Shown here in pieces: positions 49,614-64,000 of a stretch of 64,000 nt of DNA. Both the position numbers and the translations under genes were made by a program. The stretch comes from Candidatus Heimdallarchaeum endolithica. Lineage in GTDB: Archaea > Asgardarchaeota > Heimdallarchaeia > Heimdallarchaeales > Heimdallarchaeaceae. The stretch covers positions 2,848,001-2,912,000 of the forward strand of contig CP084167.1 in the NCBI GenBank assembly GCA_021513715.1. The letters are read 5' to 3'. Position 1 is the stretch's first letter; each line of letters starts with the position of its first letter. The notes beneath the pieces were generated by a model. That model did not search any database. It saw only the letters and a list, made by a program, of their open reading frames with translations, and had not been told where the DNA came from.

Positions 49614-51020
49614 TTAAATAAAATCTCCTGTTTCTATTTTCTGTGGGAGGTAAAAGTTTGTAATAAATTGTGGATCACGTGCGTTTAGTGCCTGAATTTC
49701 CGCTTTGTATCCTGTGTTTATTAGTATTTCAAGTTGTTCTTGCCACTTTGGTTTTCTTTTTACGAACTCTTCCTCTAACATTAGTTTAGATCGTCTTATG
49801 TCTTTTTGAGTCATTTTAATTAGTGCTTCTCTAGGTATATCAAATCCACTTTCAGGTTTTAGATCACTTGGAAGCAAACCTAACCATTTAATATTTGGAA
49901 CTGCAAGATGAGTAGATTCGAAACTAAGAGCCTTACTCCCAACACTATATACTCTCATGATTTCGAAACCGTAAGGGTCAGCATCCATAATAGCAAGAAT
50001 AGGTAGTTGTAAATCATCGTTTATTTTCTTTAAAAATTGCCTTGTTGCCATATCAGGCTGACCTTTAGCTGTAACTAAAATACTTGGGACATAATCGTAA
50101 AAATGATCTTCTGCTAACCTGTTAAAAATAGCATCTTTTTCTATAACTAAACAAAATTCAGCATCACTTTCCAAATCTTCAATATCATCTATATTTGGAG
50201 AAATAGCCTTTCCTGAACCAATAGCTCTGCAGTCAATGAGATCTCCCTTTTCCTTGAATTGCAACTTACCAACAACAATTCCTTTAGAAGAAGCACTAAC
50301 ATTTAATGATGTTCTAGTAGCTTGAATCATCGCTCCTAAATCTTCAATAAGAGAATCAGAAACTGCTTGTTTCTTAAATGCATTAACATTCATGTAAAAA
50401 ATATCTCTTTTTGTACTGTGGATATCTCGGGAGAGTATATCATGAAGAAGCCTCATTAGTATAGACATTTGTTCAATTGTACTTACAGAAGATAAACTTC
50501 TAAATTGGCGTTCTATCATCTGCCTTCCAATAAGTACTAGCTCTTGTTCTTCATCAAAGCCAATATTTCTTTTTCCTCTTGAAGGGATTTTAAAACCAGC
50601 TTCATCAGGATTGTTAAGTGCTTCATTCAAAAATAATAGCGCTGCTTCAACAATTTTGTTTTTAGCTTTTTCTGAAGACATTGTTTCTACATTAGTTACA
50701 CCATAAGGTAACTCGTAGTCTTGTAATAAAGTAAGTTCATTCCTAAGTTTTCTTATTTTATCAACTGAAACTTTTCTTTTGATTTCAATTCTCATTAATT
50801 CCTTTTTAAGAGAATAATTACTAAGGACTTTACCTTTATCTAAGGAATACCACTTCTTTCCACTTCTCAAAAAGAGTACAAAAGAACCTTTTCTAAGTTC
50901 AAATTCGTCCTGTAATATCTGGTATAATTCGTTTATTTGAATGCTATTATCAAAACTCATCTTTACTTCAGTTGAAGGCAAAATTGTTGCATTTTTTACT
51001 AAAAAATTATATCTTACCAT
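49614..51020 (-). CDS. top6A: DNA topoisomerase VI subunit A (Spo11 family) with N-terminal ubiquitin-like domain
   Basis: IPSR...N, STKRDIFY (catalytic Tyr), Q..SD..IED, Toprim IEKDA, KGQPD.ATR, DADPYG, KAEIQAL. Confidence 0.96.
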   Translation of the reverse strand: MVRYNFLVKNATILPSTEVKMSFDNSIQINELYQILQDEFELRKGSFVLFLRSGKKWYSLDKGKVLSNYSLKKELMRIEIKRKVSVDKIRKLRNELTLLQDYELPYGVTNVETMSSEKAKNKIVEAALLFLNEALNNPDEAGFKIPSRGKRNIGFDEEQELVLIGRQMIERQFRSLSSVSTIEQMSILMRLLHDILSRDIHSTKRDIFYMNVNAFKKQAVSDSLIEDLGAMIQATRTSLNVSASSKGIVVGKLQFKEKGDLIDCRAIGSGKAISPNIDDIEDLESDAEFCLVIEKDAIFNRLAEDHFYDYVPSILVTAKGQPDMATRQFLKKINDDLQLPILAIMDADPYGFEIMRVYSVGSKALSFESTHLAVPNIKWLGLLPSDLKPESGFDIPREALIKMTQKDIRRSKLMLEEEFVKRKPKWQEQLEILINTGYKAEIQALNARDPQFITNFYLPQKIETGDFI

Positions 51021-51030
51021 TTTTTACACC

Positions 51031-54000
51031 TTATTTTGTACTCCTTTTTTTACTTTCAATCTTTTTATCTGCAGTAATTTCATCTAAAGTTGTTTGTTTT
51101 GTCCTTTTTGCTGTTGTTTTCTTTGCTGTTGTACTTGGTTTTTTTGCTGTTGCTGTTGTTTTCTTTGTTGTTGTTTTCTTTGCTGTTGCTGTTGTTTTCT
51201 TTGTTGTTGTTTTCTTTGCTGTTGCTGTTGTTTTCTTTGTTGTTGTTTTCTTTGCTGTTGTTGTTTTCTTTGTTGTTGTTTTCTTTGCTGTTGTTGTTTT
51301 CTTTGCTGTTGTACTTGGTTTTTTCTTTGCTGTTGTACTTGGTTTTTTTGCTGTTGTTGTTTTCTTTGCTGCTGTTGTTTTCTTTGCTGTTGTACTTGGT
51401 TTTTTTGCTGTTGCTGTTGTTTTCTTTGCTGTTGTTGTTTTCTTTGTTGTTGTTTTCTTTGCTGTTGCTGTTGTTTTCTTTGCTGTTGTACTTGGTTTTT
51501 TTGCTGTTGCTGTTGTTTTCTTTGCTGTTGTACTTGGTTTTTTTGCTGTTGCTGTTGTTTTCTTTGTTGTTGTTTTCTTTGCTGTTGTTGTTTTCTTTGC
51601 TGTTGTACTTGTTTTGTTTTTTACAAAAGGAATTGATTGTTTAATTTTCTTTATATCATTATAAGTCATCTCTAGTTTTCCTTCGAGCTGTGATGTTGGA
51701 TAAACAATAAATTCTCCGATTGTATTAATTCCGAGTGATTTTAGCTTATTTCGTATTCCCTGCTTAACATCCAACTTTTCTATTGGTTCTTCTATTAGCT
51801 TTTGTAACTTTTGTACATTTTCGTTTTTGAAAGTGTCTTTTTTCTTCACCCGATTATCAGCAAAGATCAACTCTTCAAAAGAATATATTCCTATTTCCTT
51901 CAGTTTTAATATTGTCTCACTACTCATAAATGGTGTATTTTTTACTATTTGCGTTTTACCTTTTTTTGCTATTTTTAGAGATTGAGGAGTTAAAGTAGCA
52001 AAATAGTTTTTCAACTGTCTTTCTGTTATATTAGTAATTTCAGTTAGTTCATTAATTCTTGTATTAAAAACGTCCCAGAGAGAATACTTCTGTTTATGGT
52101 ATAATTTAAAAATACTGTTTGGCTTATCCTGCATTAGTGCATAGAATGAGTAAATTGGGTATGAAAGAAGTTCTTTTAATGTGGATATCTGTTTAATTGT
52201 TAACTCTGTTTGCTCTTTAATCCTTTTATCAGAAACTGATAAATGTATAATGTGGGAAAAGCCTCCGTTTTCTAAGATAGATTTTTCAGTATCCGAAAAT
52301 AGACCTAAATCTTTGATTCTGTAACTATTTAGTTCTAATTGTTCCTTCACTTTAGTCATATTAAGAGAATGAAGAAGTTCAGTAAATTCTGCATGTTGTT
52401 TTTCTGTAAATTTAATATGTAAATCATCTATATTTTGTAAAAAGAAAAGATCATAAATTTGTTCATAACCTCTTTTTGATAGTTGGGAAAGTATGTTCTT
52501 TTGACGTATAAATAATGCTAATGATGCTCTAAAACAAGAAAGAACGTCTTTTACTTTCATCGATAAATCGCTTATATTTTTTTCTTCAAACAAAGCAATT
52601 AGTTCACCTAATGAATTTATATCATTTTTATTTAGCTCGTTAATTATTTCTTTATCATTTACAAATTCTATAAGTTTAGAATTACTTTGAGCTGTTAATG
52701 AATCTAGATTATGGAATGGAATTTGAGATAAAAAGTTTTTAAGAACAGTTATGTCTGTGGATTTATTTAATAATAGTAAATCATAGACTGTTTTTATGTT
52801 ATTTTTTAGTAGAAGCTTAAATGTTTCCTTACTTTCAAAGACAAGTGGAAGAGAGTAAATTTTTTGTTCTATTCTTAAACGGAGTTTTTCTGTAATCTTC
52901 CATCTCTTTGAAGTTTTTGACTTTGAAACAAGATTAAAGATATAAGCCTCTTCTATGGAGAAAATGTGACCTTGACTTAAAACATCTAATTCAGTTTTAT
53001 CCAAAATTGTTTCTGGAATGGGGGTTAACTTCGATGCAAGAGTACGTAAAGTTTCTAATGATAGATTTCGAATCTGACGTATTAGTTTATTATCATCGAT
53101 TATCTGATTTAACTGGTATTTAGGTTTTAAAATTAAATCTCCAATTGTTAAGTTGCCATATTGTTTGTATTTCTTTTTATTCTCAAAACTTTCACCTACT
53201 AGCAAAATAATGTGCCTATTTAGAAATTGTAAGTATTCATTAAAGTGTAAAGTTATGTTCTCAGGAAAAGAGCTTGTAATATTGTCAAATTTCTTTTTAT
53301 CATATTTCTCCAAAAGAAGTAAAGATTCAAGGGTATGTTGGATTTTTTGTTCATCTTCTTCAGGGAGATTCAACTTTTCTTCGAGTTTGGTTGGTTTTGA
53401 GAAAATAAATGAGTAAATATCAAGTAGCCTTTTTGACACTTGAGAGTCTACTTTTAGAGAGTCATGATGCATATTAAAGAAAACTAATTGTTGAAAACTT
53501 AAGTTGGGAAGTTTTTCATCAAAATATCGTGAAGAGAGTTTTTGTAAAAGTTCAATTTTTGTTCTTAATGAAGGTGAAAGGTTGGAAAAAACATCGGTGT
53601 TTTCAAAAAGATCAAGATAATTTTTAATACTATTTTCTCTTAATTCAGCAATATCAAAATCTTGTAGAACAATATTTGTTTTTAGAGCAGGAGGATTGCT
53701 TATCCTAGAAATAGTAATTTTACTAAGAAAAGTGTCAACTTCACTATTCTTTGTGTCTATAATTTTTGCAAGATCTGATTTAGATAACAAAAGCATTTCT
53801 TGTATAGTACTTACTTTGGACAAAAGTTTCAACCAATTTTCAAGAGGAAGTTGTGGAAAAGAAATTAGATAAATAGACTTGTTTAATATTTTTAGAACAT
53901 TATTTCGTAATTTACTTCTCAGTCTACTGTGTTTCTTTGATAAATCATAAATCAAATCATCAACAACTGTATAATATTTCAATAATTCTTTCTTTGTTTC

Positions 54001-57000
54001 ACTATCAAATAGCATAATATTAGAAAGTTGAACTCTTTTATCTCTCAATTTTCTAATTGTGTTAAGATTCAAAGTTGAGAGAACGCGATTAACTTTCTCA
54101 AGTTGTTTTTCTGTTAAGAATGAAGAATATGAAATTGGCTTAATTAGTAAATCTTTCAGTGTTTCGATTTTATGTTCATTTAGTTTTTCTATTTCTTTTT
54201 CTGTAAAATCTGTTACTATAGAGATGGAACTGTTGAGAAGATTTAAAATTTCTAACCCTTTTTTAGTAAGAGTCTGTTTGTTCATGTACAATACAGAAAT
54301 AAGATCGATTATATTTGAGATATCTGGAATTTCAATGTTTTTACTGAATAAGTCTTTTGAATTAATAGTACCAAGAAAATCTCCTGTTTTTAATGTAAGA
54401 GATAATGTTTTCTTTTTATCTTTAATCAGATTACTAATTATTGTGCTATAACCACCTAAGTTGATTAGTTTATCGTTTTTGATAAGATCCTTGACAGTGA
54501 AAAGATTGTTGTCAAAATATTTTGTTTCAATTTCTTCAAATTCTAAGGAATTAATAGCACCTAAAAATAGGATTGAAGTATCTAATATTTGTTTTATTTT
54601 TGTTTTTATTTTATTTATCTTTTTTATATCGTAAAGCCAGCTGTATATTGAATTCTCTTCTAAATCTGAAAAACTATAGAACCCATAAGAAGACAATATG
54701 TCCTTTTCTTTTTCACTAAGAAATGGCAAATCTACTAAATGATTGGGTTTATCATGTTCAATTGCATTTTTTATGTTTTCTATCTTAATTGATGAACGAA
54801 GTTTTAATATTTGATCAAGTTTAATCCTTGATTTGTGTGCAAGTGTTTTATATGGGATAAGAAGTAAATCTGCAATAGTATATATTCCACCTTTTTTAAG
54901 ATTAGTTTCTAATTTCTCTTCTAATCCTAAGTATCGAATATTAGCTAGTAAATAGGGACTAATTTCTGCAAATATGTTTTTATCTTTTAGGTTAATATCT
55001 CCAAGTAATTCTTGATAAGACAAGTATCCTAGTTTCATTATTTTTTCTTCATATGAAGTTAAAGGAGGGCTAAATTGTTCAAGTTGTAGATTCTTTAATG
55101 TTGATAGACTTGATAAAATTTCATCAACCATTTCATCTTTCAGATTTTGAATAGAGGAAATAACATCAATAATATGAATTATATTTTTGCTATAGCAATA
55201 TTCTATTGTAGAGAGTGTTAGTATAGGTAGATTATTTATATTTCTACATAATTTCATTCTAATGTTTCTAATTTCTTCAAGATATGAATCAGGCAAATTT
55301 GAGAAAAATTCTTCAGGGAAGTAATATAAGTATTCAATAGAGAAAACTCCTAAATTATATAATTTTTGAACTAATGATTTATTTAACTTCAAATTAGCTA
55401 TATCAAGAGTAGAGAATTGAAGAGAAGATAGGTTTCTAATGAAGAGAGAATTGTTCTCTTTTATCATCTTATTTAATTCTGGAAGATAGCTTTCCCACAA
55501 ATAAATTGGAATATGAAGATAGTCATAATAGGTGTTTTTATTTTTCAATGAAGATTCAACATTTATTATTGAAATGCCAAATATTCGTTCAATTGTTTTT
55601 ATTGGTGTAAAGAGAACAGGAAAATTGACTATCAGTTTTTCTTTTTCTTCTTTGCTTATTTCTATTTGATTAACGTCTTGATAAAATAGCTGAATCAAAG
55701 AGTAAATTTCATTTTCATTAAGATGTTTAATCGTAGAAATTTCTGGTTTTTCAATTGTTTTTAGACTAGTACCTTCCTTTGCCTCACGCTTTTTGATGAG
55801 TGGGAGTTTACCCTCTCCTGTGATCTCTTCTTCAGTTAAAGATGGTAAAAGGTTTAAGTCAATACCATAGATTTTAAGTTCTGAAATAATATCTTGTTTG
55901 TTTATTTGTGATTTAATAGTTTTTATTTCTTTAAACTCTATTCCAAACAATTGGCTTAAGGAAGCTGAAGGAATGGTTAAGAATTCAAGAATTGTGTTAA
56001 TTTTGTTGTTCAAAAGAATAGAATTTTGCTGTAATGAGAGAGAATTTAAGAAGGAAGTTGGAGTTGAACCAAACAAAGAGAGAGTCTTTTTTATTGTAGC
56101 TAGATTTTTATCTTCTAAGCTGTAATCTTGTAAACAAAGAAGTTGATCTAAATAATCAATTTTAATCTTTTTTAAAGCTAGCTTCTGTTCCTTCGTCAAA
56201 AACTTTACATCATGTAGTTTGATGGCCCATTTAGGTATTTGAAAATCAGATAAGGAACTTACTAAATATTCTGCCATTTCTGTATTAATCTTTTCTGGGG
56301 GAAGAAGTAATAAATCAAGAATGAGTTTTTTATTTTCTTTTATCAATTTTCTTAAGAACTCGAGTTGTTCTATTTGAGAAAATTTGTCCAACCAAATAAT
56401 TGGATATTTAACCTTGTTTGTGAGGGATTCAGAGTTATTAAAGAGGATTTGAGAACCAATAACAAATGGTTGAGGAAGTAAATCGAGTAAATTAATAACG
56501 TCGAGAGAGGTCTTAATATTTAGTTTATCATTCTTGTTTGATAGAATATCCAAATGGTCTTTAGGGATCAGATTAACCAATTTTTCTTTGGAAAACTCTT
56601 TTACAAAACGGATAATCTCTGTTCTAGCATTTGAAGGAATTGATCTTTTTTCTTCAGAACTGAGTGTAAGAAGTTCAATGATGTTTTTTACTTCGTTTTT
56701 CCACAAATCAAGCTTGACATCTAAAGATATTTCAGGTATAGAAAAAATGTTTAGGCTTAAACCATAGATAAATTCTTCAAGTTTAGCGATGCTACTTGCT
56801 TTTTCTATTTTTTCACTTTCAGAGAATATAAGAAGATATTCTGGTACCAACCCAAAGATATCTTCAAATGATGCCTTTGAAAGGTTAAACTTAAAGTTTG
56901 TGAGTGCACTCATTAACTCTTTATCTTCCTCAAGAATTGGAATGCCTGAACTAAGACTTATATTTCCTTTTCTTTTCTCCTTTAGTTCTTCAGGGATAAA

Positions 57001-60000
57001 ATTAAGGATACTCTTAAGATCTTTTTCTCTAACTGTGAAAAGATCAATAACTCGTAGAATGCGATTCTTTGCAAGAGTACGTTTAATAAATCGCGAAAGG
57101 TTTGAAATTCTGAAAATAGAGGAGTTACAAAGAGATAGAAAAACGTCGATATTTTCTTCAAATTCATCTGAAAATGATTTTATTTGATAGCTTAAACTAT
57201 AAAGATCTTGAACTGTTTCTTTATTTAGTTTTTGTAAAGTCATAAGATTTCTCTTTGATAGTAAGGTTAGAGATTCAAGTTTTACTCCTTTTTCTGCTAC
57301 TTCTTTCTGGATTTTTTTAACTGAAACATTTTCCTTTATTTTTATAATTTCTGCCTCTGGTATGTCTAAGATTAATGATATTGTGGTGATATCTTCTGTT
57401 AAGAAAGTAAGTATATCTCCAACTCCAGAATATACAAGCTTGAGCATTTGCTCTAGTTCTAAATCTAAGAAGAATACTGATGAGAGATACAATTTTGCTT
57501 CTTTGAATACATTCATATTCACTAAATAGGGATATGATTTTCTGATTTCAGACATTCTAGAAATGAAGTCTTGGATTGAATAAATCCCAAGTTCATGTAA
57601 CTTTTCAACATATTCATCTGTAATAGAGGGACAATTTTCTAAAGGAATAGCAAAACTAAGTCTTTTCTCTTTTAGTTCGTCTAATGAAAGCAAGTCAAAT
57701 ATGTGGAATTCATTATAAATTGGATTGTTTAGGATTTGAGACAATTGTCCTTTTTCAAAAAGAGACAAATCAATTACAGAGTGAATGTCGTGTAGTTCTA
57801 ACTTCTTTATTTCTTCAAAAGACAAGAAACTGAGGAAAGTTATTGAACCAGATAATAGCTCTTTGAATTCCTTATATTTTTCTTTTTTTAGAATACTGGA
57901 AGCTCCCATTCTTACTCCTGCATAGTATAAAGTTTCTATATCTGATATCCCTATTTCTTGTAACTTAGAAATTTCTGATTCAGTGATAAGAGATGAGGGC
58001 ATAATGGGGTGAGATCTAGTTCTATGTAATTCGACGATTTCACCGTAGGAAAGATTTTCCTTTATTTCATTAATTCTTTTTTGTGTTTCATTGGATATTT
58101 CAGAAAGTTTCTTGGTAGGGGTAGAATAAAAGTCTATTAATGTTGTAATTGAAGATCGACTGAGAGGGAGAGCGAGATTAGCATCAAGGTTTAGAGACGA
58201 AATAGGGATAGATAAATCGCCTATAAGTTTATCTAAACTATTTTCCTCTCTTAATTTGTTTTTTATTTCTAAAAGAGGAGAGCTCTCTTCAAATTCAAGT
58301 TCAAACAAGATACCTAAAGTTACAGTAGAGAAATCGTTCCTTGTTTCTTCATTCAAAAAGTTAAGAAAAGGGGTTATTCCAAGAGGAAGTTCAAAGACTG
58401 AACGAATAAGTGTAATATTACATTTTTCAAAAGCTAGTTGTCTTTCAAACTCACTGAGAGTTTTAATCAAATCCGTACTGGATATCACATCAAGTAGTGA
58501 TGACTCTTCTATGTCATCTAAAATAGAAGAAAAGAAGTCTTTATTGTATGCTGTTGCAGAAATAAAATCAAAGTAATGATAAGCTCTCATGTCAATTAAT
58601 TTGGATGAATAATCTGAAACTGTCCTAAACAATGTTCTGTCTGTTAAATCGTTATCTAATATGAAAATTAAATGGTAGAGATGTGAAATTTTGTTTTGAT
58701 TGAAAATAGTTAAAGAATAATCTGATATTTCCTGAAAAATTCGTAAAGGAAGTGATAATATCTTCTTTAGTGTGAAAACTTTTCGCCAGATAGATGATTT
58801 TCTATCAATGAAAACTTCATCAGGGCAGTAGAAAAGCTCTTGAATAGATTGAAATCCTTCATAACTATAAATTGTTTCTCTACTTAATGTTCTTTGTTCA
58901 TTTTTATCAAAAAGTTTAGTTTCATATGCATAGATTGCCCTTGTTTCATATTCTTCTCTTATTCTTTGAGAAGTTAAAATGTCTATTATTTCTTTAATTT
59001 CTTTTGTTGAAATGTTTAAGATGCTACTGAGTTTAACAGATGAAGTAGAAACAAAATCAACAATTGTTAATATATCAGCTTTTCTAAGTTCTTCTGTTTG
59101 TGAAAAAGAAAGTTTTGGTAAGAAATATACCGGTAAACTGAAAAAGTAGAATATTTCTCCAAGATCTAGACTCCTTTTAATATTGTCAAATCGTTCATCA
59201 GGAACTCCTGTTCTCTCCATTAAGACTTTGGATGATGTAAGTAGAAAACCTAGTAAGGTGTTTATTTTATTTTTCTTTAGAAGAGTAATTATATCTGGAT
59301 CTAACATATCTGACAAATGCTTAAAGCGTAGATTTAACACGTTTTTTAAGTTCTGTATTATTTCCCAAGGAATTGTGTTAATTGCCCATTTCTCTTGTTG
59401 AGTAGAAAAGTATAGGTCTTCAATGGTAAAAATATTGTTTGTTTCTAGAGTTTCTACTATAGAGGGTCTAAAGATGTCGAGTTCAGAAATGTCAGTACCT
59501 GTTTCACTAATTCGAATGTTTTTCTTGTATTTTTTAGCTTCTTCTAGATCAATTTTCAAGATTGAAGCAATTTTCTCATCACTAACAAGGAAAAAGTCTA
59601 TAATTCGTCTAATCCCAGTTTTTCTTAAAGCATTCAGCTGTTCATGAGATAAACTTGTTATTTCAACTTCGTCTACTTCTTTTTCTTGTTTCGTTTCCTC
59701 GTTTAATATTTTCTTCTTTACTGTTTTTTCCCAAGTGACAAGAGTCAAGGGAGAACGCAATAGCTTTTTGAATTTCTCAATTACTCCCCATTTTATAATA
59801 GTTGCACCAAAAGTATAAGGGTGTGTCAAGTAAAAGAGTTTGTCAATAGAATTGTATCCTATAACAAGTAAGGACAGTATTTCTTCTGGTGAAAAACGTT
59901 CTGAATTTTCGAAATCAAAAGAAATTGTAGATACATATTTTCCACTAGCTACTTTTTCATAAAATGGTTGTCCATCTCTATTTAAATCAAAATTGTTTAT

Positions 60001-63000
60001 TAGTTCATCAAAACTCTTCTTTGAAAAATTAAGGAGTGTTCTTAATTCATCAAAACTGTAATTAAAAAATTGATGTAAGGAGTATATTTTTTTTGATGCT
60101 AAAACCTCATAATCTTTAAGTTTCAAACCTTTTATACGAGTGATTGGGAGTTGCAAAAACTGATAGAAGTCAATTATTTCTTGAGATAGCAAAACTTTTT
60201 CAGAAAAATCATCTGAAACTTTAAGATTTTTACTATTTATGTTATCGTAGAATTCTAGTAAGACTTTCCTGTCTTTATTTTTAGAAATTTCTGTTTCAAT
60301 GAATGCAGGTGTTAGTTGAAGAAAATCTCTTATTGTATTTACATCCTTCGTTTTAAGCTTAAGAATTGCATCATTCAAAGATTTTGCTTTAGCTTTTGTT
60401 GGAGCTAATTTTGTTAAAAAGAGTATATCTTCATTCATGAATTCTTGAAAGTTATTCATTTTTGATAGAAACTCAGAGATAGGTGGGAGTTCTTCTTCAA
60501 TATAAAAGTAAAACAACTCTTGTATTGTTGTTTGTTGTTCATTGAATTGTTTGACCAATCTCGGGAAGTGCTTTTTTATAATTTTTAAATTTCCTTTGTA
60601 CAATTGTTTGTTTTTCTTAACCTTGTCAGCAGATATGCTTTGTTTTAAACGAATGATCTCTTCCTCGTTAAGGTTTAGTATTAGAGAGAGTTCTTTATTA
60701 CTCCATATAAGAAACCTCCCTATACAATTTACTCCTACCTCATTTAATACGTTAATTTTCTCATTTAATTCAGGAAAAGCAAAAATTAAAGGTGTTCGTA
60801 ATAATAAATAATCTGAAATGTATTGATTCTTAGTTTGTTCATCTTCAAATCCGAAATCTTCTGGGTTAGAGTATATTAAATCCTCTACTGTATATATTTC
60901 ATACTTGTTTGCTTTGCTTTTCAAAGATAGAAAATTGGGAATGGGTGTACCTATTTTTTTCTTTATTCTTGCAATCTCACTTTTTAATAACCCCATTTCG
61001 CGTAATCTTTTTGAAGGAGTAATCAAGAATGATGTAGAAGTAAATATTTTATTTTCCAATAATCTTTCTTCTGCCTTTTCATTAATTACTTTGAGGTGAG
61101 ATAAATCAAGATCTCTATTTGTTTCATTGAGATGAGTAAGTATGCGAAGTTTCGATTCTTCCAATAAACTATCCACAAAAATAGCTAATTCCTTTTTCAT
61201 TAAAGTTCTTAACTTTGCATTTGCATATTGGGCTAGAGTATCTATGTTCACAGACTTAAAAATGTCTAATATGCTCTTTTTTGTGCTATCATCTATAGTA
61301 GATATTAGTTTTAGTTTGCTTAGAGGAATTGATTTTTCAGTGTTAGCCAGAATAGTAAAGAATCTTGTGTAAATTGAACGCTCTAATTCTTTGATCTCTA
61401 GAAGGTCCTTAGTTGGTTTTTCAAGAAAATTTTTTATTGTCTCTATCTTTCGTCTATGGAAAGCATTTTTAGTATAACCGTCTATCCAGTCAGGTTTCAT
61501 TTTTGTTATATTAGTTTTTAGAAATTCAGGAAACTTCTGTGAAATATGCGAAAATACTTTCTTAATATAATCAATCAAGATTTCTGTTAAATCATTTTCA
61601 TATTTATAAGAAAAGGGCTCATTAAACTTGAAAATAAAATCTTCTAGTCCTCTAAACTTATTTGAAAAGTTGGGATAGGTTGTTTTTACATAGTTGAAGT
61701 CAGGATATAGAAATTCTTCTTTTAATTCTGAATAAGCAGACATGGTATCCAAATTGAACTTAAATTCTTGAATAAAACTTGATAAATCGACTGTTTCTTC
61801 TGAGTTTTGAGATTTCGTAATTTCACTAATTAACTTAAATTTGTTTCCCTCTATTAAACGCTCTACTAATCCTTCAACAAAACGTAATTGTGTAGCTTCT
61901 GTTGCTAAATAGTGATAACTATTTTGAATCCATCTTTGATATAAAGCTTCATTGAAACTACTACTTGTTCCTCTTGCAAACCTTTTATCAATTGTTTTGT
62001 TTGTTAATGCTTTCAGAGGAAGTTCAGGGCTCAACTTGGACCTGTCTAATTCATAAATTGTCCTTTGCTTTATTCTTGAAACTTCTTTTTTTGAAAGATT
62101 TAGAATTGTGGACAATTCTGAAATTGGTATAGAGAGAAACTTTCCTATTGTTAAAATATTATTTTTAGCACAATTGTTTTTATATTTGTCTGGACACCAC
62201 ACATTAAGTTCAAAAATCGGTGTTCCTAAAGGAACAAAATTCCTAATTTTCTTTTTTGCTCCATGGGCAAGAGCTGCTGCAACCTTATATTTCTCTTTAT
62301 TTATATTTGTATAAACTATTTTTTCATTCTCCAATATTCTAGCGAGATTATCGATTACAACAGGGGCTGATCTTACAAAACGAGATAATCTTGCATGTTC
62401 TCTTTTTCTTCTTTTTGCTCTACTTAGGAAAGTTTTTAGTCTTCTACCAAGTTGTTGCAAAGCTAATCTTATCTCTTCTTCAATCTCAGGAACAGTTGAA
62501 ATATACTCTTTACTAGTTTCAGGAAAAGGAATTTTTGTACTTACTATTGACACAGCAATAGCTAGCGGGTCTGATTGTCTTGTAAGTCCATATTCGCTCC
62601 AATTTAAAGAAGAAACTACTTTTGTAATAACATCATTTCCCGCACCAAAAATTAGAGGAATTCTATTTGCATATCTGTAAATTATTTTATTATCAACTGA
62701 TGTGCTTCCTTTTTGTTGGGCATATTTAGATACTCCACCTCCATAACCTATTGCAGCTTCTACAATAAAAGGGTGGCCAGAGTAAGCTTTTGGAGGACGA
62801 GAAATTGCTTCAACAAATTCTGGTTCAAGTTCTTTTTCTAAACCTTTTCTTAGTCTTGCTGCTCCTAAAGGAGAAAGAGCATCACCTTGTGGAGCGTCGA
62901 ATCTAAAGATCCTATCCCTCTTTCTTTTTATTTCTTTAGCTTCTTGGTATGCTTTAATGAATCCTTCATGAACTATTCTTCTAATTTCTTTTGAAGTAAG

Positions 63001-63936
63001 TTCGCTTGGTTTTTTGTTAGGATCAATTTCCAAAATTTGAAAGAATTCCTCAGCAACTTCCTTTCTCACTCCCATGAAGTCTTTTGATAAAAATTCGATT
63101 AGATCATTTGCAGAGGTTGCAGCTATTTTTGCTTTGAATTGAGTAATATCACAACCAAATGGGTGTAGTTGAATTACTTTTGGAGGATCTGGCATGTCAT
63201 CTACTACTTTTTGAAAAACTAGTTTTTCACTTGTTCCTTCTTCATCTCCAGGTAGTACTACAGTGAAACTAGCATAAGGGGTAATTATTGCTAATTGCTT
63301 AAAGTATTCTTTAATGCTGTTTTTTGCTAGATTCCAAGCTCCAGTGAAAGTTATACTTATCTCAGTTCCACTAGTATGTAAATATCCTTGGTCATCAGGA
63401 TAATATTCATGCTGCTCCATGATGACTGGTTCATTTTTTTCTAAATTAATCATTAAATGAACTTCATTTGTCATTTCTTCCATGAAGTATCTGCTTTTTA
63501 TTCTTGCAGGAAGATCAACTGAAGACATAGAGTGAATTAAACACATCTTGGCTCCTAAACCAAATCTTCCTCTAGTTTGAATCACTCCATATTTTGTCCC
63601 TGTTAATACTCGACCAAAAAGGTTCGGAATCTCGTGACCTGGAACACCTACACCATTATCTCTGCATGTTAACTGAAGAAAATCAAGATGTTTTTCTAAT
63701 TGTTTATATCTAGTAATATCTAATAATTCATTAATTTCAGAACTAGTTAGTTTTCTTAATTCAACATATATTTCTGGATTTACACCTAGTTTTTCAGCTG
63801 CATCTAAACCATTTTCAACTAACTCTCTAACTGATGTGAAAACAGCTCGCATTGAATTACCAAAACCTGCAATAGCCTTATTTTCATTAAAAAAAGCAGC
63901 TGCACTCATTTTTCGTGTTTTATTTTCTTCAGTCAC
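51031..63936 (-). CDS. top6B: Giant DNA topoisomerase VI subunit B with tandem HhH array and H1-like tail (~4300 aa)
   Basis: N-terminal ~550 aa: ELVENGLDA, DNG.G, L.GTKY, RGRFGLG, GTEI, H2TH, RYANRIPL, W..YGL, STKIPF...SKE; single open frame of 12.9 kb; GTG at 63936 follows AGGAGTGA (track start 63945). Confidence 0.93.
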   Translation of the reverse strand: MTEENKTRKMSAAAFFNENKAIAGFGNSMRAVFTSVRELVENGLDAAEKLGVNPEIYVELRKLTSSEINELLDITRYKQLEKHLDFLQLTCRDNGVGVPGHEIPNLFGRVLTGTKYGVIQTRGRFGLGAKMCLIHSMSSVDLPARIKSRYFMEEMTNEVHLMINLEKNEPVIMEQHEYYPDDQGYLHTSGTEISITFTGAWNLAKNSIKEYFKQLAIITPYASFTVVLPGDEEGTSEKLVFQKVVDDMPDPPKVIQLHPFGCDITQFKAKIAATSANDLIEFLSKDFMGVRKEVAEEFFQILEIDPNKKPSELTSKEIRRIVHEGFIKAYQEAKEIKRKRDRIFRFDAPQGDALSPLGAARLRKGLEKELEPEFVEAISRPPKAYSGHPFIVEAAIGYGGGVSKYAQQKGSTSVDNKIIYRYANRIPLIFGAGNDVITKVVSSLNWSEYGLTRQSDPLAIAVSIVSTKIPFPETSKEYISTVPEIEEEIRLALQQLGRRLKTFLSRAKRRKREHARLSRFVRSAPVVIDNLARILENEKIVYTNINKEKYKVAAALAHGAKKKIRNFVPLGTPIFELNVWCPDKYKNNCAKNNILTIGKFLSIPISELSTILNLSKKEVSRIKQRTIYELDRSKLSPELPLKALTNKTIDKRFARGTSSSFNEALYQRWIQNSYHYLATEATQLRFVEGLVERLIEGNKFKLISEITKSQNSEETVDLSSFIQEFKFNLDTMSAYSELKEEFLYPDFNYVKTTYPNFSNKFRGLEDFIFKFNEPFSYKYENDLTEILIDYIKKVFSHISQKFPEFLKTNITKMKPDWIDGYTKNAFHRRKIETIKNFLEKPTKDLLEIKELERSIYTRFFTILANTEKSIPLSKLKLISTIDDSTKKSILDIFKSVNIDTLAQYANAKLRTLMKKELAIFVDSLLEESKLRILTHLNETNRDLDLSHLKVINEKAEERLLENKIFTSTSFLITPSKRLREMGLLKSEIARIKKKIGTPIPNFLSLKSKANKYEIYTVEDLIYSNPEDFGFEDEQTKNQYISDYLLLRTPLIFAFPELNEKINVLNEVGVNCIGRFLIWSNKELSLILNLNEEEIIRLKQSISADKVKKNKQLYKGNLKIIKKHFPRLVKQFNEQQTTIQELFYFYIEEELPPISEFLSKMNNFQEFMNEDILFLTKLAPTKAKAKSLNDAILKLKTKDVNTIRDFLQLTPAFIETEISKNKDRKVLLEFYDNINSKNLKVSDDFSEKVLLSQEIIDFYQFLQLPITRIKGLKLKDYEVLASKKIYSLHQFFNYSFDELRTLLNFSKKSFDELINNFDLNRDGQPFYEKVASGKYVSTISFDFENSERFSPEEILSLLVIGYNSIDKLFYLTHPYTFGATIIKWGVIEKFKKLLRSPLTLVTWEKTVKKKILNEETKQEKEVDEVEITSLSHEQLNALRKTGIRRIIDFFLVSDEKIASILKIDLEEAKKYKKNIRISETGTDISELDIFRPSIVETLETNNIFTIEDLYFSTQQEKWAINTIPWEIIQNLKNVLNLRFKHLSDMLDPDIITLLKKNKINTLLGFLLTSSKVLMERTGVPDERFDNIKRSLDLGEIFYFFSLPVYFLPKLSFSQTEELRKADILTIVDFVSTSSVKLSSILNISTKEIKEIIDILTSQRIREEYETRAIYAYETKLFDKNEQRTLSRETIYSYEGFQSIQELFYCPDEVFIDRKSSIWRKVFTLKKILSLPLRIFQEISDYSLTIFNQNKISHLYHLIFILDNDLTDRTLFRTVSDYSSKLIDMRAYHYFDFISATAYNKDFFSSILDDIEESSLLDVISSTDLIKTLSEFERQLAFEKCNITLIRSVFELPLGITPFLNFLNEETRNDFSTVTLGILFELEFEESSPLLEIKNKLREENSLDKLIGDLSIPISSLNLDANLALPLSRSSITTLIDFYSTPTKKLSEISNETQKRINEIKENLSYGEIVELHRTRSHPIMPSSLITESEISKLQEIGISDIETLYYAGVRMGASSILKKEKYKEFKELLSGSITFLSFLSFEEIKKLELHDIHSVIDLSLFEKGQLSQILNNPIYNEFHIFDLLSLDELKEKRLSFAIPLENCPSITDEYVEKLHELGIYSIQDFISRMSEIRKSYPYLVNMNVFKEAKLYLSSVFFLDLELEQMLKLVYSGVGDILTFLTEDITTISLILDIPEAEIIKIKENVSVKKIQKEVAEKGVKLESLTLLSKRNLMTLQKLNKETVQDLYSLSYQIKSFSDEFEENIDVFLSLCNSSIFRISNLSRFIKRTLAKNRILRVIDLFTVREKDLKSILNFIPEELKEKRKGNISLSSGIPILEEDKELMSALTNFKFNLSKASFEDIFGLVPEYLLIFSESEKIEKASSIAKLEEFIYGLSLNIFSIPEISLDVKLDLWKNEVKNIIELLTLSSEEKRSIPSNARTEIIRFVKEFSKEKLVNLIPKDHLDILSNKNDKLNIKTSLDVINLLDLLPQPFVIGSQILFNNSESLTNKVKYPIIWLDKFSQIEQLEFLRKLIKENKKLILDLLLLPPEKINTEMAEYLVSSLSDFQIPKWAIKLHDVKFLTKEQKLALKKIKIDYLDQLLCLQDYSLEDKNLATIKKTLSLFGSTPTSFLNSLSLQQNSILLNNKINTILEFLTIPSASLSQLFGIEFKEIKTIKSQINKQDIISELKIYGIDLNLLPSLTEEEITGEGKLPLIKKREAKEGTSLKTIEKPEISTIKHLNENEIYSLIQLFYQDVNQIEISKEEKEKLIVNFPVLFTPIKTIERIFGISIINVESSLKNKNTYYDYLHIPIYLWESYLPELNKMIKENNSLFIRNLSSLQFSTLDIANLKLNKSLVQKLYNLGVFSIEYLYYFPEEFFSNLPDSYLEEIRNIRMKLCRNINNLPILTLSTIEYCYSKNIIHIIDVISSIQNLKDEMVDEILSSLSTLKNLQLEQFSPPLTSYEEKIMKLGYLSYQELLGDINLKDKNIFAEISPYLLANIRYLGLEEKLETNLKKGGIYTIADLLLIPYKTLAHKSRIKLDQILKLRSSIKIENIKNAIEHDKPNHLVDLPFLSEKEKDILSSYGFYSFSDLEENSIYSWLYDIKKINKIKTKIKQILDTSILFLGAINSLEFEEIETKYFDNNLFTVKDLIKNDKLINLGGYSTIISNLIKDKKKTLSLTLKTGDFLGTINSKDLFSKNIEIPDISNIIDLISVLYMNKQTLTKKGLEILNLLNSSISIVTDFTEKEIEKLNEHKIETLKDLLIKPISYSSFLTEKQLEKVNRVLSTLNLNTIRKLRDKRVQLSNIMLFDSETKKELLKYYTVVDDLIYDLSKKHSRLRSKLRNNVLKILNKSIYLISFPQLPLENWLKLLSKVSTIQEMLLLSKSDLAKIIDTKNSEVDTFLSKITISRISNPPALKTNIVLQDFDIAELRENSIKNYLDLFENTDVFSNLSPSLRTKIELLQKLSSRYFDEKLPNLSFQQLVFFNMHHDSLKVDSQVSKRLLDIYSFIFSKPTKLEEKLNLPEEDEQKIQHTLESLLLLEKYDKKKFDNITSSFPENITLHFNEYLQFLNRHIILLVGESFENKKKYKQYGNLTIGDLILKPKYQLNQIIDDNKLIRQIRNLSLETLRTLASKLTPIPETILDKTELDVLSQGHIFSIEEAYIFNLVSKSKTSKRWKITEKLRLRIEQKIYSLPLVFESKETFKLLLKNNIKTVYDLLLLNKSTDITVLKNFLSQIPFHNLDSLTAQSNSKLIEFVNDKEIINELNKNDINSLGELIALFEEKNISDLSMKVKDVLSCFRASLALFIRQKNILSQLSKRGYEQIYDLFFLQNIDDLHIKFTEKQHAEFTELLHSLNMTKVKEQLELNSYRIKDLGLFSDTEKSILENGGFSHIIHLSVSDKRIKEQTELTIKQISTLKELLSYPIYSFYALMQDKPNSIFKLYHKQKYSLWDVFNTRINELTEITNITERQLKNYFATLTPQSLKIAKKGKTQIVKNTPFMSSETILKLKEIGIYSFEELIFADNRVKKKDTFKNENVQKLQKLIEEPIEKLDVKQGIRNKLKSLGINTIGEFIVYPTSQLEGKLEMTYNDIKKIKQSIPFVKNKTSTTAKKTTTAKKTTTKKTTATAKKPSTTAKKTTATAKKPSTTAKKTTATAKKTTTKKTTTAKKTTATAKKPSTTAKKTTAAKKTTTAKKPSTTAKKKPSTTAKKTTTAKKTTTKKTTTAKKTTTKKTTATAKKTTTKKTTATAKKTTTKKTTATAKKPSTTAKKTTAKRTKQTTLDEITADKKIESKKRSTK
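51105..51610 (-). repeat. Imperfect tandem repeat encoding TTAKK/TTTKK/PSTTAKK histone-H1-like tail
   Basis: 15-21 bp units such as TTTCTTTGCTGTTG repeated ~28 times on + strand. Confidence 0.95.
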
Positions 63937-64000
63937 AAAATTCACTCCTTATATTCCGAATTAATGTATACTCATACATTTTTTTTCCATTATTTAAAGA

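Follow-up and report, generated by a model that had tools for sequence, protein, structure and literature searches.

A hypervariable polybasic tail carrying a conserved PIP-like motif at the end of the giant topoisomerase VI B subunit of Candidatus Heimdallarchaeum endolithica

Introduction

The lysine repeats at the end of the Streptomyces coelicolor topoisomerase TopA bind DNA, stabilise the enzyme–DNA complex and raise its processivity, and they end in acidic residues (PMC5714199). A second kind of terminal element is the PIP box, by which FEN1, PolB, RNase HII, RFC-L and other clients are docked to PCNA; the archaeal consensus peptide crystallised with PCNA is KTTQSTLDSFFK (PDB ID: 1RXM; PMC4929162). 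Both Topo VI subunits of P. abyssi were co-purified with NucS, PCNA and RFC (PMC4929162). The motif itself can be degenerate, as 10% of 77 confirmed PCNA motifs are without either aromatic residue, and positive flanking charge tunes the affinity for PCNA over four orders of magnitude, possibly offsetting less hydrophobic motifs (PMC6881253). For Top6B, two papers report lineage-specific C-terminal extensions in gyrase-encoding archaea (Villain 2022; PMC9348778) and score Asgard TopoVIB as "CTD +" (Brinkmeier 2022; PMC9665070).

Here we consider the end of the Top6B gene in a 64,000-nucleotide stretch of the Candidatus Heimdallarchaeum endolithica genome (the window; contig CP084167.1, positions 2,848,001 to 2,912,000). 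Positions given below are those of the window, and all features lie on the minus strand. Among prokaryotic enzymes, Asgard Topo VI stands nearest to plant Topo VI and the Spo11 machinery, and we know of no account of how archaeal Topo VI locates catenated sister chromosomes and replication forks. The present locus and both earlier papers share an additional C-terminal region in the Asgard Top6B, but the region is a globular CTD there and their available portions mention no polybasic tail or PIP-like motif. In the open-access literature, including those portions, we found no description of such a tail or motif in an Asgard Top6B, nor any paper on an Asgard topoisomerase VI with helix-hairpin-helix (HhH) domains.

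Results

The giant Top6B gene and its neighbourhood

The genome is a single contig of 3.33 Mb that holds one Top6B, and the database names of the nearest proteins are those of Candidatus Heimdallarchaeaceae. The ORF (51031–63945) runs for 4304 aa without interruption, its stop codon being at 51031–51033, and has the GHKL ATPase and transducer of a DNA topoisomerase VI subunit B, with top6A adjoining. The catalytic core (GHKL ATPase, H2TH and transducer; 62296–63945, aa 1–550), identified with NCBIfam and Pfam profiles, is complete: aa 7–550 match NCBIfam NF003218 with an E-value of 4e-140 and TIGR01052 with 2e-119, and the transducer matches Pfam Topo-VIb_trans with 5e-57. Between the core and the tail lies a diverged HhH-like arm of ~3560 aa (51622–62295, aa 551–4108), seen as repeated weak Pfam matches to RAD51D_N (E 7e-21, summed) and RNA_pol_A_CTD and as internal self-matches. 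The downstream gene, top6A (49614–51020, 468 aa; Pfam TOP6A-Spo11_Toprim, E 2e-59, and TP6A_N, E 4e-19), starts 10 bp past the Top6B stop codon, an arrangement common to the family loci, and the Top6A of the family has an additional N-terminal domain. Every one of the 31 family genomes (5 genera) encodes the giant Top6B, and MAGs bearing the names Heimdall-, Kari-, Hod-, Thor-, Odin- and Promethearchaeota yielded 49 giant Top6Bs (2400–4340 aa).

Composition and repeat structure of the tail

The tail spans K4109 to K4304 (aa 4109–4304, ~196–198 aa; 51034–51621) and contains 78 T, 62 K, 30 A, 9 S, 6 P, 2 R, 2 D and 2 E, that is 40% threonine, 31% lysine, 15% alanine and 3% proline, with a net charge of about +60. 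All of its acidic residues are confined to the last 21 positions, leaving the ~170-aa array with none. Repeat analysis places this polybasic tandem-repeat array at 51106–51612 (aa 4112–4280), where it is built from seven copies of TTATAKK, six of TTTKK, five of TTTAKK and six of PSTTAKK(K); Tandem Repeats Finder gives a period of 18 bp (26.2 copies) and also periods of 21, 15 and 42 bp. The terminal sequence of the tail is KQTTLDEITADKKIESKKRSTK, and its very last part, a short basic end (51034–51072, aa 4292–4304) that the ORF translation gives as ADKKIESKKRSTK, is nearly identical in a genome of the same genus. A Lys/Thr/Ala repeat tail free of acidic residues for ~170 aa and closed by a QTTLDE-containing end had been described from the letters of the DNA alone (the sequence-only reading), and composition, units and terminal sequence all confirm it.

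At the DNA level the tail is strikingly uniform, with ACA used for 76 of its 78 threonines and GCA for all 30 alanines, against mixed codons in the rest of the protein. The peptide units of the array exist in one or two DNA versions apiece, differing at the wobble base of the Lys codons, and the longest exact repeats are of 82 bp. This near-uniformity, together with the long exact repeats, shows the expansion to be recent, in agreement with what the sequence-only reading had supposed. When all six frames of the 3.33-Mb genome were scanned, no second polybasic S/T/A/P-rich stretch of 40 aa or more turned up in a real frame, and the tail is thus beyond chance. The reading frame on the minus strand is fixed by its continuity with a Top6B that is conserved in 31/31 family genomes. 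Plus-strand ORFs over the repeat (50972–51664 and others) were considered and set aside as frame artefacts of the repeat.

The same reading had called the tail histone H1-like. The C-terminal domain of histone H1 is Lys/Ala/Pro-rich, and like it, and like Hc1/Hc2, AlgP and HupB, the Top6B tail is disordered by prediction, polycationic, of low complexity and built from repeats. The likeness stops at composition. A globular H1 or HU domain is lacking, threonine dominates, S/TPKK and PAKKA/KPAA units are absent, and the tail sits on an enzyme and not on an abundant architectural protein. The Linker_histone profile has no match in Top6B or in the tail, which follows an (HhH)2 module and not the winged helix of H1/H5; [ST]-P-x-K does not occur in the tail, where proline is found only as K-P-S; and the tail alone has no match in Pfam or the PDB at E-values up to 10. 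We thus regard the tail, on these comparisons, as an analogue of histone H1 tails and not a relative.

By the same kind of comparison, the lysine-repeat tail of TopA appears to be the closest tested analogue. Actinobacterial TopA and this Top6B are both topoisomerases with a C-terminal run of Lys-rich, low-complexity repeats that varies in length between lineages and precedes a short stretch that includes acidic residues. However, TopA is a bacterial type IA enzyme whereas Top6B is the archaeal ATPase subunit of a type IIB enzyme, the two are without homology, and the Top6B tail, unlike that of TopA, is Thr-rich, comes after an array of HhH modules and includes the conserved motif Q-x-T-L.

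Predicted structure

For structure prediction we gave AlphaFold2 the last 289 residues of Top6B, with an alignment of 22 family orthologues. The last folded part, directly before the tail (51625–51900, aa 4016–4107), is modelled as an all-helical module with a pLDDT mostly of 83–94, and of 71 in its first ten residues. In Foldseek it is matched best by the N-terminal domain of RAD51C/RadA and the RNAP alpha-CTD (TM-score normalised to the target 0.64–0.69, rmsd ~2.3 Å), with E-values that are weak (0.13–0.7) because the domain is small, and we describe it as an (HhH)2-type module. Both matched domains are (HhH)2 DNA-binding folds. Past residue 4109 the model is coil with a pLDDT of 41–56, the lone exception being a single helical turn at the L-D-E of the terminal motif. 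The tail is thus predicted to be intrinsically disordered, and the idea of a disordered basic tail is borne out by this model and by the net charge of about +60.

Conservation and turnover among relatives

Readable tails from 27 family loci have 26–51% K+R and at most five acidic residues. When considering the 23 complete ones, lengths range from 28 to 198 aa, K+R from 26 to 43%, and acidic residues do not exceed four; the longest of these is the tail of the Candidatus Heimdallarchaeum endolithica genome. S+T content across the family tails is 22–49%. The threonine richness is confined to the genus, other genera having S, P, A or V instead, and this weakens the idea of specific Thr phospho-sites.

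Even close relatives differ in their arrays. A closed genome of the same genus (G005), 92% identical over the 300 residues preceding the tail, has a tail of only 77 aa with a 45-bp unit in 3.3 copies, the last 26 residues being almost those of the ~198-aa tail. A MAG protein with a 97%-identical core has a third array, a 15-aa unit in at least 5.5 copies that is broken off at the contig end. The suspicion in the sequence-only reading that the array varies in length thus holds between close relatives. A similar picture emerges further afield, with arrays of KAKP (9.6 copies), KKKTTP (6.4), KKP[IT] (4.8), KTKP (6.2) and KKTST (3.9) in other lineages, two of these contigs ending within the array; independent tandem arrays are found in at least eight lineages in all. 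What is conserved in the tail is its charge and its disorder; its sequence, repeat unit and length are not.

For the other families of the class we read the ORF just upstream of top6A, except in f2, where the contig was too short. Of the order's four families, three (Heimdallarchaeaceae, f3 and f4, the latter two K/S/T-rich; f2 is the fourth) have a polybasic tail, so that the absence from orthologues which the earlier reading had named as telling against it is not what we see. Families f5, f6 and f7 have no polybasic tail. The polybasic tract, on this sequence comparison, is therefore not universal among giant Top6Bs, and it is not essential to them, since f5 is without it altogether.

A conserved motif near the end of the tail

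Within this unconserved tail lies one short linear motif, K-Q-T-T-L-D-E-I-T (51073–51099, aa 4283–4291), identified in the family alignment as PIP-like and without aromatic residues. Its general form, [KRQ]-Q-x-T-L-x-[DE]-[MILV], is present in 22 of the 23 complete family tails, 22–39 residues from the end, and its Q, T and L are the sole near-invariant tail columns in the alignment. The motif was not found in one family member (L029), nor in families f3, f4 and f7. These invariant residues use several synonymous codons among the family (ACT, ACC and ACA for T; TTA, TTG, CTC and CTT for L), which places selection on the peptide and not on the DNA. A nucleotide-level signal at this place, for instance one for top6A translation, was considered and is ruled out by the same variation. 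The motif lies in the predicted disordered terminus (pLDDT ~50) between the basic flanks KRTK and ADKK..KKR.

We compared the motif position by position with the canonical PIP box, Q-x-x-[LIM]-x-x-[FY]-[FY], which binds PCNA in a pocket beneath the interdomain connecting loop and fills that pocket with its aromatic pair. Position 1 is Q in 23/23 family loci (Q4284 in Candidatus Heimdallarchaeum endolithica) and the aliphatic position 4 is L in 23/23. The aromatic pair is not there: positions 7 and 8 are I and T in Candidatus Heimdallarchaeum endolithica and, across the family, M/I/V/L and T/S/G/A/K, with K at position 7 in one relative (P0003). Set against KTTQSTLDSFFK, the Top6B motif RTKQTTLDEITA has Q, T, L and D in common, and I-T replaces F-F. 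Top6B thus resembles known PIP-box clients (FEN1, PolB, RNase HII and RFC-L; PMC4929162, PMC6881253) in Q1, T3, L4 and an acidic residue at 5–6, and in that the motif has basic flanks, lies within a terminus predicted to be disordered and forms one helical turn in the model. It differs from them in that the Heimdallarchaeaceae motif is aliphatic at position 7, polar or small at position 8, and followed by 13–30 further residues in the family, that is, not at the very C-terminus.

Closer PIP-like forms are found in other clades. In f5 Top6B the motif reads V-[VL]-G-[RQ]-L-D-x-[YF]-M and lies three or four residues before the stop codon, and f6 Top6B has T-R-E-V-D-Q-F-F. Top6Bs from MAGs named Hod and Thor have R-Q-K-S-L-N-A-F, one named Promethearchaeota has a terminal K-Q-K-S-L-D-E-Y-S before the stop, and K-[ST]-L-D-S-F and K-T-L-E-E-F-M occur in further clades; these motifs sit at the C-terminus or near it (P0035-38, P0044), and the sister-family Top6Bs carry Y or F at position 7. 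The host has comparable ends on its own clamp clients, with Q-R-R-L-D-S-F-F-S closing FEN1, K-S-L-D-T-F-F-S closing the 1343-aa PolB (which also has Q-M-N-L-E-K-F-L at its N-terminus) and Q-A-K-I-N-E-Y-F closing RNase HII, each directly before the stop. PCNA is encoded in the genome, on the minus strand at genome positions 1971400–1972230, and has an acidic C-terminus, EDDYEYDDEDY.

The resemblance to an archaeal PIP box that the sequence-only reading saw in KQTTLDEI is therefore strengthened: nothing else in the tail is conserved as an island, selection acts on this peptide at the protein level and closer PIP-like motifs are found in sister families, but both canonical aromatics are missing. 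As the defining aromatic pair is absent in the family, we call the motif PIP-like from its sequence and do not class it as a PIP box.

In most genera the core of the motif is L-[LM]-D-[MILV], that is hydrophobic-hydrophobic-x-hydrophobic. The motif and the additional N-terminal domain of Top6A do not co-occur cleanly, as L029 keeps the domain without the motif.

Discussion

The best explanation of the tail, and one that from the sequence comparisons we think probable on balance, is that it tethers the enzyme to DNA electrostatically, is prone to slippage and bears a degenerate PIP-like motif for docking. A predicted disordered polycation (about +60 over ~196 aa) closes the HhH arm of Top6B, and an A2B2 enzyme would have two such tails. 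Composition would be selected, whereas sequence and length would change quickly as A-rich units of 12–45 bp slip during replication. The tail would most likely act as a non-specific DNA tether, giving the enzyme a higher local affinity for DNA and a longer dwell time on it. The motif, as [KR]-Q-x-T-L-x-[DE]-aliphatic, may be the Heimdallarchaeaceae form of the PIP-like C-terminal motif of the sister families, and would most likely dock the enzyme to a partner, with PCNA as the foremost candidate; the absence of aromatic residues could be offset by the basic flanks together with the acidic PCNA C-terminus.

Binding of PCNA by the Top6B of Candidatus Heimdallarchaeum endolithica is thus a plausible proposal, though we would not call it probable. 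Taken to its full extent, it would make the Topo VI of Heimdall-group Asgard archaea a sliding-clamp client that uses an aromatic-free PIP motif within a hypervariable polybasic tail, with charge matched by the acidic PCNA C-terminus in place of the hydrophobic plug, and the type IIB enzyme would be tethered through its ~3500-aa HhH arm to replication forks. We put this wider picture forward with about the same confidence.

The fast turnover of the array would also fit weak constraint. In one alternative the array is mainly a flexible spacer, driven by slippage and tolerated, that takes no part in DNA binding; the terminal motif alone would be of importance, and the K/T composition would simply follow from the A-rich codons of a genome with 30% GC. 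We think this unlikely. It would agree with the unconserved sequence, the seven-fold length range, the units that differ even inside one genus and the f5 Top6Bs, which keep a C-terminal motif without a polybasic tract. However, charge is kept in every complete tail of five genera as well as in f3 and f4 (K+R 26–43%, almost no acidic residues), all indels preserve the reading frame, and neutral A-rich slippage would be expected to yield such tracts elsewhere in a genome that has no other. A more ambitious role is the stronger form of the sequence-only reading, in which an H1-like tail would condense chromatin or phase-separate and be switched by Thr phosphorylation or Lys acylation. Though a disordered polycation of high hydroxyl content would suit it, this seems improbable to us, given that threonine gives way to S, P, A or V outside the genus and that S/TP-K type sites are missing from the tail; and two enzyme-bound tails per tetramer, on the sole such protein in the genome, fit local anchoring better than global condensation.

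The remaining alternatives concern the partner of the motif and the reality of the tail. The motif might dock something other than PCNA, such as the ubiquitin-like N-terminal domain of Top6A (LLD[MVL] being similar to the hydrophobic core of a SIM), or some other protein of the replisome or one of chromatin. The missing aromatic pair, the L-[LM]-D-[MILV] pattern of most genera and the extra domain on the family Top6A would all be accommodated in this way, but the L-D-E-I of the Candidatus Heimdallarchaeum endolithica genus misfits a SIM core, L029 retains the Top6A N-terminal region beside a tail with no motif, and aromatic PIP-like forms, close to the motif of the host FEN1, occupy the same place in sister families; we judge such a partner slightly less likely than the spacer. 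That the tail is an artefact of assembly or annotation, a repeat collapsed or expanded or a frame that is not translated, is hardly credible. Short-read assemblies do break at such arrays, but this genome is a single contig, its frame is unbroken from the conserved HhH module, across the array, to a conserved motif and to an end shared with the closed genome of the same genus, and top6A begins 10 bp past the stop codon. We therefore retain the tether with its docking motif as the preferred reading.

The tail is real, and under that reading it joins two known kinds of feature, a basic disordered topoisomerase tail and a degenerate clamp-type motif. The tail alone is of moderate interest, and would be of more if the link to PCNA is true. 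That the DNA-binding arm bears at its tip a conserved peptide for docking to the clamp is a concrete hypothesis that can be tested with peptides, and the same enzyme with tails of 28 to 198 aa offers a natural series for the contribution of a charged disordered tail to a topoisomerase.

The repeat also has practical consequences. The equivalent array interrupts three MAG contigs or proteins, which end inside it (L014, L020 and P0002), and by breaking short-read assemblies it leaves Top6B often truncated in MAGs. The copy number of the array could act as a strain marker.

PCNA and polymerase of the source genome

The PCNA of the source genome, the leading candidate partner for the PIP-like KQTTLDEI motif in the tail of the giant Top6B, is encoded outside the window (G000:C1:1971400-1972230, - strand, on the genome's single contig) and has a strongly acidic C-terminal tail, …KEDDYEYDDEDY*, which could pair electrostatically with basic flanks of PIP motifs. 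The genome also encodes, again outside the window, a family-B DNA polymerase frame of 1343 aa (G000:C1:1893331-1897362, - strand) with a PIP-like motif at each terminus: QMNLEKFL lies close to the start of the protein, and its C-terminus reads KSLDTFFS*.

The repeat tail and its neighbours

The Top6B tail array is a recurring break point in assemblies: MAG contigs of relatives (loci L014 and L020, and protein P0002) stop within the repeat, and Top6B is thus frequently annotated as 'partial'. Three long + strand ORFs lying across the repeat (window 50972-51664, 51090-51644 and 51094-51636) were rejected as genes, being frame artefacts of low-complexity DNA.

Giant Top6B relatives from other clades have repeat tails of a quite different make-up from the one described here. 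That of P0024 (3685 aa) is a K-D-K-T-T array 257 aa long that contains 31 acidic residues. Those of P0031 and P0032 (about 3900 aa) measure 220-270 aa, are 53% Ser, are built of SSSSKR-type units and terminate in KQKTLTSDS*. Another giant Top6B relative, P0049, a partial protein of 4099 aa under the name Candidatus Heimdallarchaeota, has a precomputed SAP-domain match (PF02037), and its C-terminal 60 aa resemble a SAP motif; such an end would be a further DNA-tethering module, placed at the same arm end as the tail.

Top6A (window 49614-51020, - strand; about 465-480 aa across this and relatives' loci L033-L041) carries an additional N-terminal region of about 100 aa, conserved among the family loci compared and, as judged by eye, also kept in families f2-f4. 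The Top6A N-termini of families f5 and f7 are different, that of f7 beginning with a basic stretch.
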